Source: Vicinamibacterales bacterium (GTDB taxonomy: Bacteria > Acidobacteriota > Vicinamibacteria > Vicinamibacterales > JAMQPK01). Taken from it: 64,000 nucleotides of DNA. The DNA lies in assembly GCA_963762055.1 (NCBI GenBank), contig CAVXJF010000007.1:71452-135451 (forward strand), in the 5' to 3' direction. The position numbers and the translations under genes were made by a program. The notes beneath the pieces were generated by a model that was not told the origin of the DNA, made no database searches, and saw only the letters and a program-made list of their open reading frames with translations. Shown here piece after piece: positions 13,931-63,702 of this stretch. The first letter of the stretch is position 1; each line of letters starts with the position of its first letter.

Positions 13931-15247
13931 ATGTTCGTAACGGCCGATCAGTTTCTCCTGACGACCCTGGTCGTCAAGATCACGATCGTCGCGGCGCTTG
14001 CCACGATCCTCGTGCGGTACCACCGGTTTCGTCACATTCTGATCTCGGAGCGGCGGGCATGGCCCGAGCGCCTCCTGTTTGCGTTCAGCCTTGGCGTACC
14101 CCTGGCCGCGGGAGTCGCGTCGAGAATTCTGCTCAACTACGACGCGGCCGATCTGACGCTCGAGGGCGCCTTTCTTGCCGGACTGATCGCAGGGCCGTAC
14201 GCCGGGGCGATTGTCGGGCTGATGGTGGCTGTCCCGGCCCTTCTCAGCCACGAGTTCATCGCGCTGTTCTTCGCCGTGGGCTGCGGCTTCGCCGGCGGCG
14301 GCCTGCGCGAAGCCTGCCCGAACAAGGAAGAGATCTGGCACTTCTCGCCGTTTGTCTTCACCAAGCTGCACCGCCACCTATGGCGCATGCTCCGGAACGT
14401 CAGCGTCGACTGGGCCGTCATCTTCCTGCTCGCGCCGGTCGCGCTCGAGCTGCTGCGTCAGGCGCTTGGCTGGCGATTCGGGGAAGCGCGCCTCTTCTTT
14501 CTCGCCCCCGAAAACATGACGCCGTGGCGCATCTCACTGGTGGTGCTGACGACGGTGCTCTGCGTGGCGACCGCGATCAAGATCTGGAACAACGCGCGCA
14601 TCGAACATCGCCTCGAAGAGCAGGAGAAGCTGCTGTTGACCGCGCGCGTCGAAGCGCTGGCCAGCCAGATCAACCCGCACTTTCTCTTCAACACGCTGAC
14701 GTCGATTCAGTCGCTCATCCGCACGAACCCCGAGACCGCCAGGACGGTTGTCGTCAAACTGTCGGGTCTGCTCCGCCGGCTGCTGCGCAGCCGGGATCAT
14801 TTCGTGACGCTGCGCGAGGAGCTCGAATCGATCGACGAATACCTCGACATCGAGGTCATCCGGTTCGGTCCGCAACTCAAGATTGACAAGCAGATCAGCC
14901 CCGACACGCTCGACGTCATCGTGCCCAGCATGATCCTGCAACCGCTGGTCGAGAACTCGATCAAACACGGGTTCTCGCGTAAGGTGGGCGGCGGGCGCAT
15001 CATCATCCGCAGCGTGCGCCACAACGCGCACGCCATCATCGAGGTGGAAGACGACGGGCTCGGGATGACCGAAGATCGAATGAATACGGCGCTGACCGAC
15101 GGGATCGGGCTCAGCAACGTGAACGAACGTCTCAGCGTGATCTACGGATCGGGATATCGCGTGCGGATCACGAGCGCGCCGAACCTCGGGACGATCATCC
15201 GGCTGGAAATCCCCGACATGGTGTCGGCGGAGAGAATTACGGCCTAG
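13931..15247 (+). CDS. LytS/YehU-type sensor histidine kinase
   Basis: A multi-TM N-terminus is followed by the His_kinase motif INPHFLFNTL and an HATPase region (LVENSIKHG, DDGLGM). Confidence 0.85.
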   Translation: MFVTADQFLLTTLVVKITIVAALATILVRYHRFRHILISERRAWPERLLFAFSLGVPLAAGVASRILLNYDAADLTLEGAFLAGLIAGPYAGAIVGLMVAVPALLSHEFIALFFAVGCGFAGGGLREACPNKEEIWHFSPFVFTKLHRHLWRMLRNVSVDWAVIFLLAPVALELLRQALGWRFGEARLFFLAPENMTPWRISLVVLTTVLCVATAIKIWNNARIEHRLEEQEKLLLTARVEALASQINPHFLFNTLTSIQSLIRTNPETARTVVVKLSGLLRRLLRSRDHFVTLREELESIDEYLDIEVIRFGPQLKIDKQISPDTLDVIVPSMILQPLVENSIKHGFSRKVGGGRIIIRSVRHNAHAIIEVEDDGLGMTEDRMNTALTDGIGLSNVNERLSVIYGSGYRVRITSAPNLGTIIRLEIPDMVSAERITA

Positions 15248-15288
15248 GTAAAAAGAGGGTCAGACCCCCTTTTTACGTTTTTTGTAAA
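15248..15288 (+). terminator. nested palindrome / terminator-like hairpin between lytS-like and lytTR genes
   Basis: gtaaaaagagggtc-a-gaccccctttttac is followed by gTTTTTT. About 25 nt (gggtcagacccc(c)tttttacgtttt) recur inside gltB at 58579-58602. Confidence 0.6.
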
Positions 15289-46273: not shown

Positions 46274-46715
46274 TCATTTGGCATGAACATTCGTGTTACT
46301 TTCGGATTTTGCCGCGGCGCCCTTTTTCGGGCTCGTCAGGAACGCTGTCATGCGCGTTGTGCGTTGACCGATCTGCTTGCCTTTCTGCATGGCGCTGACC
46401 GTCACGTCCCAGGCTCCCGCCATCGTCACGATGGCAATGCCGTTGTATTTTCCGCCCCCGACGTTGTTCAGCTGCCCCTGCGTGCGCATCTCCGGGTGTT
46501 TCGTCTTCGGGTCGGCAGGCATCACGAGCAAGAGGGAGACCTCGGCATTCGCGACCGGCTGCCCCTTGGCGTCCTGTACCTGTCACTTCGAAAAAGTTCT
46601 GACCCAAACCCAGCGGAGATGGCCGTGTGGTGAGCGCCAGCCTCGCGCCGCCGCCCTGCGCGGCAACCGGCACGATGGCCGCCAGAACGATGACGGACAG
46701 AAGCAATCGTCGCAT
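46274..46715 (-). CDS. YtkA/FixH-like periplasmic protein downstream of copA, interrupted by a 1-nt frameshift
   Basis: MRRLLLSVIVLAAIVPVAAQ...GQNFFEVT is in one frame and VQDAKGQPVANAEVSLLLVMPADP...GKYNGIAIVTMAGAWDVTV is in the next, joined at about 46580. Confidence 0.6.
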
Positions 46716-57400: not shown

Positions 57401-58631
57401 TCGCTTCCGGACCGATCGTCGAACCCATCGACGTCACCAGCTCCTCACGGATGGCGTCGAGCGGCGGGTTGGTGACCTGGGCGAACAGCTGGCTGAAGTA
57501 GTCGTAGAGCAGCCGCGGCCGGTCCGACAACACGGCGAGCGAGGTGTCGGTGCCCATGGAACCGATCGCTTCTTCGCCGTTCTGCGCCATCGGCGCGATC
57601 AGAATCCTGAGATCTTCCTGGGTGTAGCCGAACGTGCGCTGCCGGTTCAGCATCGTGTAGTGATCGGGCAGCGGCAGCAGCGGCGCCGGCTTGAGCTCTT
57701 CGAGCGTGATCATGTTGTCGGCGAGCCACTGCGCATACGGCTGTGCGGTGGCAAGCGACTTCTTGATCTCCTCGTCGGCGATGATGCGTCCCTGCTCGGT
57801 ATCGATGAGGAAGATGCGGCCCGGATGCAGCCGTTCCTTCAAGAGGATGTTCTCGTCGGGGATGTCGAGCACCCCTACCTCGGACGCCATCACGACGAGG
57901 TCGTCTTTGGTCACGTAGTACCTGGACGGGCGGAGGCCGTTGCGATCGAGCACGGCGCCAATCACCCTGCCGTCGGTGAACGCGATCGACGCCGGGCCGT
58001 CCCACGGCTCCATCATCGTCGCGTGATACTCGTAGAACGCCTTGCGCTCGGCCGGCATCGATTCGTGGCCGGCCCAGGGCTCGGGAATCATCATCAGCAC
58101 CGCGTGCGGGAGCGACCGGCCCGTCATCACGAGAAATTCGAGGACGTTGTCGAAGGTCGCCGTATCGCTGCCGCCCTCGCGGATAATCGGCAGGATCTTC
58201 TGGAGGTCGGCGCCGAGCAGATCGGACTCGCACATCGCCTCGCGCGCGTGCATCCAGTTGATGTTGCCGCGGAGCGTGTTGATCTCGCCGTTGTGCGCGG
58301 CGTACCGGTATGGATGCGCAAGCGGCCACGACGGAAAGGTATTGGTGCTGAAGCGCTGGTGCACCAGCGCCAGCGCTGACTCCACATCCGGATTCGTCAG
58401 ATCGGGGAACATCGTCTCGATCTGATCGGCGATGAGCATGCCCTTGTAGATGAGCGTGTTCGCCGAGAGGCTCGGGATGTAGAAATATTTCTTGTCGGCC
58501 ATCGAGATCGGCAGCTTGTCGACCGCGTGCTCGATGCGCTTGCGAATGACGTACAGCTTCCGCTCGAACGCAGCAACGGGGTCAGACCCCTTTTTACGTT
58601 TTCCGTAAAAGGGGGTCTGACCCCTTCCCAA
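54468..58631 (-). CDS. gltB: glutamate synthase large subunit, residues after the amidotransferase loop (C-terminal 1387-aa fragment)
   Basis: The remainder of the Ntn amidotransferase domain and the central, FMN and GXGXG domains are all recognisable. Its apparent N-terminus ([17 protein letters not shown]) is translation of the palindromic insert. Confidence 0.9.
58578..58624. repeat. 47-bp nested palindrome inserted in gltB
   Basis: The structure is ggggtcagacccctttttacg-tttt-ccgtaaaagggggtctgacccc: 21-bp arms, one mismatch, a 4-nt loop. Each arm ends in the 13-bp palindrome GGGGTC(A/T)GACCCC. Confidence 0.9.
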
Positions 58632-59094
58632 CGAAGATTTGCTTGAAATACGGCTCGACGGCGACAGCCGATGCGCCGACCAGGCGATTGTCGGTCGGCA
58701 GATCGCGCCATCCGAGCAGCGTCTGCCCTTCCTCGTCGATGATCTCGTCGATCAGCGCCTGGATCGTGGCTCTGGCCGACGAATCCCGCGGCAGAAAGAC
58801 ACACCCGGCGCCGTAATCGCCGGCCGCGGGCAGCGTGATCCCGAAGTTCCGCGCCTCCTTGCGGAGAAACTTGTCCGGCATCTGGATGAGGATGCCGGCG
58901 CCGTCGCCGGTGTTTACTTCGCAGCCACAGGCGCCGCGATGGAGCAGATTGACGAGGAGCTGAAGTGCCTGCTTGACGATGGAATGCGAGCGCACCCCCT
59001 TGACGTGCACGACGAAGCCAACGCCGCACGCGTCTTTTTCGTGTGCGGGGTCATAGAGTCCCTGCGGGGAAGGGCAACCCGGTTCGCGATCCAT
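58594..59094 (-). CDS. gltB: glutamate synthase large subunit, N-terminal 166-aa fragment
   Basis: The Ntn-amidotransferase start ...HEKDA|[17 protein letters not shown] and GWRDLPTDN are present. It terminates at a TAA inside the palindrome. Confidence 0.9.
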
Positions 59095-59210
59095 AAAGAA
59101 GTGATAGTTATCGGGTACACCCAGTCATAAGTAAAATACAATTTATATATCCGAAGTATCTGTTTTGGGAATACTACAGGAATGAAGGCTGAGGAATCAG
59201 GGATTCCGGA

Positions 59211-62420: not shown

Positions 62421-63702
62421 GTGAAAACCGAATTCGCCGATCTCACCGAAACGAAGAAGAGCGTCGCCGTCGAAATTCCGAGCGACATCGTCGACGCTCA
62501 GATCGATCGCGTGGCACGGAGCTATAGCAGGCAGGCGCGCATTCCCGGCTTCAGACAGGGAAAGGTGCCGCCGACGCTCATCAAGAAACGCTTCCGCGAA
62601 CAGATCCTTCACGATGTGGCCCACGATCTCATCCCGCGCGCCATCGACGAGGCGTTGCGCGAGCGCGGGCTGGAGCCGGTCGATACGCCCGACGTCAAAG
62701 ATGTGAGCCTCGACGAAGGCCAGGCCCTGACGTTCACGGCGACCTTCGAGACGCTCCCTCCCATCGAGCCGGGCCCGTTGAACACCATTTCGCTGACCCG
62801 GCCCGCGGTGACGCTCGAAGAGGGCGCGGTCGAGAAGACTCTGGACCAGCTGCGCACCCGCGCGGCGCGTTACGAACCGGTCGAAGGCCGAGGCGCCGAA
62901 ACCGGCGACACGGTCACGCTCGACATCGAGCGCAAACCGATAGCCGCGGGGGACAAGGCCGACCATCATCACGACGTCGTGGTCGAAATCGGAGGCAAGG
63001 CGAACCCGCCGGGGTTCGACGAACACCTTCTGGGTCTGTCGGCAGGCGCGCAGAAGAGCTTCACCATCCATTACCCGGACGACTACGCGGTGAAAGAAAT
63101 GGCCGGCACCAGCGTGGACTACGCGGTGAACGTGAAAGACCTCCGGAAGCGGGCGCTGCCCGAGCTGGATGATGAGTTCGCCAAGGACGTCGGCGAGTTC
63201 GAGACGCTGCAGGCGCTACGCGACCGCATCGAGCAGGATCTCCACAGGGAAGCGGAGAGCGAAGCCGACAGAAATCTGCGTGGCGCGCTCATGAAGGAGC
63301 TGGCCGGGCGTGTCACGGTGGACCTTCCCGACTCGCTCGTCGAGCGCGAGCTCGACCGGCGCACCGAGGAGTTCGCGCGCCGCCTCATGGATCAGAATAT
63401 CGATCCCCGGCGCGCCAACATCGACTGGGACCAGTTCCGCGACAGCCAGCGCGACGCCAGCCGCGAATCGGTGAAGAGCGCGCTCGGTACTCGACGAGAT
63501 CTCGAGACGCGAGAACGTGACCGTGTCGGACGAGGACATCGAGAAAGACGTGGCGCAGTACGCGGAGCGCAGCGGGCTGACGCCGGCGGCGGTGCGCGCG
63601 CGCCTCGAGAAAGACGGCGCGCTGTCGCGCCTGGCGGCGGGACTTCGCCGCGAAAAGACCATGGATTACGTTCTGTCCCAGGCTCAAGTCGTTCGCGACT
63701 AG
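62421..63702 (+). CDS. tig: trigger factor (1-nt frameshift near 63486)
   Basis: From GTG 62421 the protein reads VKTEFADLTETKKSVAVEIP...IPGFRQGKVP. After ...SVKSAL the conserved C-terminus (VLDEISRRENVTVSDEDIEKDV...) continues in the +1 frame to TAG 63700-63702. Confidence 0.85.

Follow-up and report, generated by a model that had tools for sequence, protein, structure and literature searches.

A putative REPIN-type palindrome in a variable loop of GltB and the probable consensus error that splits the gene

We found that the large-subunit glutamate synthase gene gltB, which falls into two reading frames in the window (the whole stretch of DNA analysed, 64,000 nucleotides), carries a palindromic element at the point of division, and that the split is very probably an assembly (consensus) error of two bases. 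The fuller explanation that we favour, and hold to be likely, is that a member of a genome-wide palindrome family lies in a loop of GltB and is translated there, that gltB itself is most likely intact, and that the 47-bp form of the element is a consensus error. An intact gene with a translated element is the most likely state in the organism because the loss of 2 nt is taken as an error of an indel-prone assembly. Judged by its sequence, the palindrome is a REPIN-type element, namely two inverted REP units that belong to a genome family with its own predicted Y1/HUH transposase.

The palindrome consists of two 21-nt arms with one mismatch around a 5-nt loop (TTTTC), and both arms end in a 13-nt self-complementary core, GGGGTC(A/T)GACCCC (Table 1). 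The sequence-only reading had described a nested palindrome of 47 bp that interrupts gltB, together with two minus-strand frames of 166 and 1387 aa, and both are borne out by the sequence and its open reading frames; the palindrome's loop, given there as 4 nt, is counted here as 5. We observe that the core pattern, expected 0.05 times per window, occurs four times at no more than one mismatch in the 64-kb window, and that the predicted RNA fold of the gltB element has about -39 to -44 kcal/mol (z = -6.2), a value that none of 200 shuffled sequences reached, so the palindrome is not a product of chance. An Rfam scan of positions 58000-59200 returned a chance-level match only (ceN80 snoRNA, at 21.8 bits where the gathering score is 80).

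Table 1. Features of the gltB region and a further family copy, in window positions
Feature	Position	Strand	Remarks
47-bp putative REPIN-type palindrome (two inverted REP units); plus strand GGGGTCAGACCCCTTTTTACGTTTTCCGTAAAAGGGGGTCTGACCCC	58578..58624	.	Basis: sequence, family comparison, RNA fold
Arms and loop of the palindrome	arms 58578..58598 and 58604..58624; loop 58599..58603	.	2 nt under the 49-bp family standard
GC-rich core 1, GGGGTCAGACCCC	58578..58590	.	Coding strand: second GSDP
GC-rich core 2, GGGGTCTGACCCC	58612..58624	.	Coding strand: first GSDP, end of the first frame (frame A) before its stop
Inner AT-rich hairpin module, TTTTTACG-TTTTC-CGTAAAA(G)	58591..58611	.	
Family copy with one core (GGGTCAGACCCC) between two AT-rich hairpin modules	15240..15288	.	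C7:86709
gltB 5' fragment, 166 codons	58594..59094	-	N-terminal part of the class-II amidotransferase domain; TAA inside the element; GATase_2 profile positions 1-137
gltB 3' fragment, 1387 codons	54468..58631	-	GATase_2 positions 141-420, Glu_syn_central, Glu_synthase, GXGXG; no other stop
gltD-like small subunit, 482 aa	52921..54369	-	Directly downstream of gltB; Fer4_20 + Pyr_redox_2
Nitrite/sulfite reductase-family gene, 612 aa	59211..61049	-	Directly upstream of gltB; NIR_SIR + NIR_SIR_ferr

The gene is recognisable as gltB by the domain set GATase_2, Glu_syn_central, Glu_synthase and GXGXG, by its gltD neighbour, and by PDB matches to 7mfm, 6s6s and 1ea0. The Pfam domain GATase_2 is divided between the two frames at profile positions 137/141, both halves are otherwise fully open across 1553 codons, and gltB is present in a single copy in this genome. 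The gltD-like neighbour is also found at two other gltB loci (L021 and L022) and the NIR_SIR neighbour at one of them (L022); the latter gene puts gltB into a nitrogen-assimilation cluster. In the alignment with the three PDB structures, the insert falls between the strand ending in ...KQIFVG and the following helix of the amidotransferase domain. B. subtilis GltA (7mfm) has a loop with 10 fewer residues at this position, and across the wider order the loop typically has 12 residues, e.g. IGRGPGVRDHAH. The proposal that a small palindromic element lies within a variable GltB loop held up.

Upon scanning the genome (G000; 5.17 Mb in 17 contigs, of which the window is C7:71452-135451), a search that the sequence-only reading had called for, we found 54 arms of the family, against 0 for the reversed control pattern. 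By the names of homologous proteins, the organism belongs to the Vicinamibacterales (Acidobacteriota). The family has about 45 loci, with 17 canonical 49-bp short doublets, each with a core spacing of 36 nt, 5 long doublets (~92 bp, 79-80 nt core to core) and about 25 single arms. The doublet consensus is (AAAn)GGGGTCAGACCC-NN-TTTTTACG-NNNNN-CGTAAAAA-NN-GGGTCTGACCCC(nTTT), and in any one copy the two NN pairs vary together (TC/GA, TA/TA, CA/TG, TG/CA). Many copies have a stop codon directly 5' of them, and few are spanned by a long open frame, by a crude test made with no gene calls. Single arms do lie inside long open frames at C4:397952, C6:119692, C9:89042, C16:197306 and C17:1309815, where GC3 is roughly 0.67-0.8 to either side of the arm; they may be additional intragenic copies, or the frames may be spurious. 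The gltB copy is the sole doublet in the genome that is 2 nt short (core spacing 34 vs 36), and a copy with the same arm sequence is assembled at 49 bp at C6:29245. The second family copy listed in Table 1, taken with the 49-bp form, points to repeats built as mosaics of two hairpin modules.

The two 13-bp palindromes had been read earlier as a duplicated target. They are instead the stems of the inverted REP units and are present at the other ~45 loci whatever the flanks; since the cores are the same at every family locus, they are part of the element. A MITE with target-site duplication was rejected for the same reason, with these 13-bp 'duplicates' identical at all family loci, where that model would have them differ from locus to locus. 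Outside the window, at C17:975110-975832, two inverted arms enclose an open reading frame for a 213-aa transposase with HUH (NHWHLL) and Tyr motifs, which scores 39.6 bits against PF01797 Y1_Tnp (cut-off 23) and 66.8 bits against NCBIfam NF047646 REP_Tyr_transpos, under its cut-off of 80. Because the palindrome family comes with a Y1 transposase gene (IS200-like, RAYT-like) that lies between two of its inverted copies, we assign the family to the REP/REPIN-type systems. Pairs of arms at a like spacing (about 720-740 nt; positions of arms only) are found in two related genomes, at C7:176376-177113 of G008 and C6:73755-74487 of G002.

Upon closer examination of independent data, we observe the element at the same gltB site in its canonical length. 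A 447-nt contig from a soil metagenome run (X2) matches the window at about 99% identity between 58464 and 58900 and differs inside the element by an additional T behind 58589, an additional A behind 58606, and 58612 G>A; its element has the canonical 49 bp and is in frame with gltB, and the two bases that G000 lacks relative to it lie at the outer edges of the inner hairpin module, one per arm. Additionally, a canonical 49-bp copy lies inside a 1529-aa GltB on a JGI contig (L021), and three protein clusters of full-length, 1529-aa GltB (P0003-P0005) have 22-residue loops of the form GSDPLFTxxVKRGSD(P/A). Read in the gltB frame, the canonical copy contains no stop and is translated as GSDPLFTxxVKRGSDP. 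The 49-bp form adds 36 nt (12 residues) to the one-core allele, for a full-length GltB of about 1530 aa. It had been suggested that the true insert might be 33 nt, tolerated in frame as 11 residues; an in-frame, tolerated insert is what we find, and the size needs correction, as the real form in X2, L021 and P0003-P0005 has 36 extra nt and 12 residues.

The single-core state is found as well. The earlier reading had noted that deletion of 34 nt restores a single frame and had predicted an 'empty' allele, and both have a natural counterpart in a gltB contig (X3) that skips exactly 34 nt (58574-58607) and is left with one core. At another locus (L022) only a decayed half of the element is kept at gltB. 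Doublet, half-element and single-core alleles coexist in soils. Among the 80 gltB loci obtained from metagenome assemblies by a protein-seeded scan, all 80 are in frame at the loop. When metagenome contigs were scanned by exact pattern for gltB alleles that contain a REPIN of variable spacing, 0 matches were obtained, for which the coverage of the collection is probably the reason. A contig from X4 with a '+T' was considered as a second gltB allele and rejected, its flank diverging before 58575, which marks it as another family copy.

The gltB split is one of three frameshifts in the window. The other two lie in tig (~63486) and in a YtkA/FixH-like (ytkA-like) gene (~46580) and are verified in the assembly, each as one extra G, in agreement with the earlier remark that the assembly carries other 1-nt insertions. 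Near-identical contigs from independent data show none of the three: for tig, the X2 and X4 contigs lack one base at 63486, and for the ytkA-like gene the X1 and X4 contigs lack one at 46579/46581. With 0 of 3 window frameshifts reproduced in independent data, the split is most likely an assembly error, and gltB, first reported as a split gene, is probably intact. In both tig and the ytkA-like gene the single extra G stands right before GTAC (tcGGTACtc, caGGTACag), which looks like a motif-linked, possibly methylation-related consensus error. A correction of gltB by one error only (G5 to G4, leaving a 46-bp element) was ranked below the 49-bp correction, as every independent allele reads 49 bp.

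Five assemblies in the order are frameshifted exactly in the GltB loop, four of them in the genus (including G000) and the fifth, G021, in a sister family. The frameshifted loops of the other four measure 107 nt (L013, from G001), 100 nt (L014, from G018), 62 nt (L016, from G016) and 55 nt (L018, from G021) between the anchors, and none of their source assemblies exceeds 40 contigs or an estimated completeness of 91%. Among relatives in general, a frameshift at the loop is found only where the assembly has no more than 40 contigs and an estimated completeness of no more than 93%, whereas all relative assemblies with at least 140 contigs are in frame there. The frameshifts at these four loops are probably consensus errors too, at repeat or strain-variable sequence.

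Caveats attach to the assembly error, and the gltB copy may really be 47 bp long in the organism. The losses in G000 are nearly symmetric in the two arms, as expected of hairpin-templated mutation, and the tig and ytkA-like errors, as an extra G before GTAC, are of a different error type from that in gltB. A real frameshift would mean that a 47-bp REPIN variant, arisen by hairpin-templated loss in each arm or by insertion from a 47-bp subfamily, inactivates gltB and that ammonium is assimilated via glutamate dehydrogenase. We regard this as unlikely, and it is the strongest of the rival explanations. Besides the near-symmetric loss, it can draw on gapless 47-nt versions of the element in other contexts (X25) and on identical canonical copies elsewhere in G000 that are correctly assembled; the exact 47-bp junction, when searched in the runs, matched only other family copies (X25, X26). 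It can also draw on the outcome of the check for an alternative GOGAT or GDH that had been called for, which returned no second gltB, the single-copy state itself counting as a point in favour, and one gene of the glutamate/Leu/Phe/Val dehydrogenase family at C15:34969-35541 (PF00208, 202 bits); from this gene an alternative route of ammonium assimilation is predicted, and a loss of GOGAT need not be lethal. Against it, the two halves of gltB are perfectly open over their 1553 codons apart from the element, the 99%-identical X2 allele is in frame, and the independent contigs have none of the three window frameshifts. Furthermore, the arms of L021 and X2 are identical at 44/44 positions, with 6/36 differences in the neighbouring coding nucleotides, yet G000 shows 3 changes from X2 within the arms despite 99% identity in the flanks, a pattern that resembles noise and not evolution.

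Programmed recoding, in which ribosomes would hop between the GAC-CCC (GSDP) sites, skip 34 nt and make a single GltB from a frameshifted mRNA, is highly improbable. In translational bypass, known from T4 gene 60 and from the mitochondrial byps of the yeast Magnusiomyces, a short hairpin insert with identical codons at its bounds breaks the frame of a coding sequence. The gltB insert is likewise hairpin-forming and has matched codons at its bounds: GGG TCN GAC CCC stands at both the potential take-off and the potential landing site, a strong hairpin separates the two, and the gap contains a 0-frame stop. The five assemblies of the order that are frameshifted exactly in this loop would fit as well. 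The normal gltB allele, however, is in frame and translated, with close relatives reading through the element so that no bypass is needed, and the stop does not adjoin the putative take-off site but lies 6 codons past it. The inserts of the frameshifted relatives are unrelated, 55-107 nt long and without a common take-off/landing pair, and the low contig counts and completeness of their assemblies point the same way. That the palindrome is foreign to gltB and the reads were misjoined at a repeat present ~45 times in an error-prone assembly is practically negligible as an explanation, being refuted by X2, L021 and P0003-P0005, in which the element sits at precisely the same position and is bordered by gltB sequence left and right, and by the colinearity of gltB on either side of it.

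The loop that houses the element hosts palindromic repeats in further genomes of the genus. In genomes of the same genus, the stretch between the same anchors consists of differing palindromes of 27-144 nt, nearly all in frame. Next to the family of the window (type A), type B (GGCTCCSGGAGCC-TTTTTC) occupies the gltB loop of G006 (as a single unit), G009, G016 and L023; type C (GGGGTCGGGAGGG-TTTTTCG...CGAAAAA-CCCTCCCGACCCC) that of G004 and of the protein P0006 (a cluster of 141 sequences); type D (GGTTCC/GGAACC arrays) that of G003, G005, G008 and G018; type E (GACCTGAAGGTCRGC) that of G001, G002 and G007; and type F, translated as 'GRGFSRA', that of P0008, P0010 and P0019. A further type with a different core and the same TTTTACGGAAAACGTAAAA module is found at L058. 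By pattern scan, B arms number 56 in G006, 24 in G009, 20 in G016 and 0 in G000; C arms 61 in G004 and 0 in G000; E arms 203 in G002, 58 in G001 and 5 in G000; and A arms 54 in G000 and 0 in G004, G006 and G009. Types A, B, C and E are thus each a genome-wide family in the genomes that have them in gltB, and the loop copies match each genome's own current family. In total, a single genus has about six sequence types in this one GltB loop, at least four of them genome-wide families.

Upon placing the loop types on a tree built from 440 GltB residues outside the loop, which is only partly resolved, we observe that they are interspersed. The type C genome G004 falls within the B clade of G009, G016 and L023 (SH-aLRT 99, branch lengths 0.005-0.02), and the type A protein P0005 stands beside the D-type G018 and P0013. 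On this tree, the occupant of the loop clearly switches fast between close relatives.

Several loops hold more than one unit. That of L015 (from G002) has 48 residues, with three ADLKVSTTTDA-like repeats and an inverted unit, in frame, and that of P0019 contains repeated SPTDAGLQP units; the GltB loop can therefore host tandem arrays of REP units translated in frame. At the outgroup metagenome gltB of L058 (Ga0207648_10089259), the 102-nt loop is an in-frame palindrome of -64 kcal/mol, whose GC core CGACCTCGGGGGTCG differs from that of the window family and whose inner module is the same, a combination that suggests modular evolution of these repeats.

As to mechanism, the element would have reached gltB by RAYT-type single-strand, hairpin-dependent transposition, and the insert would be tolerated because the loop is presumably on the surface and functionally neutral in the protein; this population's own gltB copy would have 49 bp. 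Slippage between the cores probably turns doublets into single cores and back, and the frame would be preserved in the process because the cores are direct and inverted repeats exactly 36 nt (12 codons) apart. The presence/absence polymorphism at gltB (X2 vs X3) and the copy numbers that differ between genomes lend indirect support to a putative mobilisation of the palindromes in trans by the transposase. A bolder reading, that the GltB loop is a dedicated landing site in which successive REP/RAYT families replace one another in frame, is tentative and in our estimate rather doubtful; bearing on it are GltB proteins with different families although only 0.005-0.02 changes per column separate them, and the arms that stay identical (44 of 44) next to diverging codons (6 of 36). 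The repeat occupation may fit transposases that target or convert the resident hairpin, in which case the loop would be a natural read-out of REPIN insertion specificity, and it may also fit selection for a strong hairpin in the gltB mRNA or DNA, for instance one that makes translation pause behind the first amidotransferase subdomain, or one that serves in processing or attenuation.

These findings indicate that calling gltB a pseudogene here is not justified by present evidence. The gltB genes of G001, G016, G018 and G021, with frameshifts in the loop, are at risk of the same annotation, and equal caution applies to them and to G005, whose frameshift lies elsewhere in gltB. The interest of the locus is mainly in the repeat nest of the loop and not in the apparent gene disruption, and it offers a clean case, in a little-studied phylum, of selfish palindromic repeats translated within a central metabolic enzyme. 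To our knowledge, the basis on which REPs select a site for insertion has yet to be understood; the GltB loop, with its unusual family-switching occupation, could be used to study this choice, as well as to test the effect on expression of strong hairpins inside a coding sequence.

In comparison with known systems, in-frame intragenic REPs, Rickettsia RPEs as the classic case, and the turnover of REP classes are already known (PMC3733652, PMC10969869, PMC3686654), and what is new here is the phylum and the gene for in-frame REPs and an unusually dense turnover at the same site. In REPIN-RAYT systems, inverted doublets are dominant, a Y1/HUH transposase gene lies between inverted copies (Bertels & Rainey 2011, PMC3116915; Nunvar et al. 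2013, PMC3686654), copy numbers are lineage-specific (PMC3116915, PMC3686654) and REP classes turn over fast between related strains (PMC3686654). The family described here is similar in forming many short imperfect palindromes in one genome (54 arms vs 0 in the control), in that inverted doublets are common (17 short ones of 49 bp and 5 long ones of ~92 bp vs about 25 single arms), in being mostly extragenic, with many copies right after a stop codon and few spanned by a long open frame in the crude test made with no gene calls, and in having a Y1/HUH gene within inverted copies at the C17 locus. It differs in that REPINs have been described as extragenic (PMC3116915, PMC3686654) whereas the gltB copy is intragenic, in that the transposase remains under the NCBIfam RAYT equivalog cut-off (66.8 vs 80 bits), and in the modular repeat of a GC core and an AT hairpin. 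The 5' GTAG/CGTC tetranucleotide is absent from the family consensus AAAnGGGGTCWGACCCnnTTTTTACG, and the family is closer to the TIR-type repeats and their TIRYT genes (PMC3733652) than to the classical GTAG REPs.

Rickettsia RPEs are palindromic selfish repeats that stand in frame in housekeeping genes at fold-compatible positions (Ogata et al. 2000, summarised in PMC10969869 and PMC3733652); they measure about 100-150 bp, occur in an obligate intracellular alphaproteobacterium and have no known cognate transposase (PMC10969869, PMC3733652). The likeness is confined to the in-frame behaviour. The element here has 49 bp, whereas RPEs are 100-150-bp repeats with a family-specific conserved peptide and are presumably unrelated to it in sequence.

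A parallel in translation is given by the 'REP-decorated proteins' of Di Nocera et al. 2013 (BMC Genomics 14:522, PMC3733652), in which REPs and REP dimers are intragenic and in frame. Most REPs are extragenic, and a minority lie wholly inside open reading frames, often as dimers and in genes for known proteins, where they encode 20-30 residues (PMC3733652). The gltB element is likewise a short palindromic repeat translated in frame inside the gene of a known protein, but the REPs of that study are defined by a GTAG or CGTC tag, which the family here lacks, and the host here is an acidobacterium and the target gltB. Two Xanthomonas species have different REPs at about the same recB site (PMC3733652); with at least four families and about six types at one loop within one genus, the same-site turnover in GltB is far denser.
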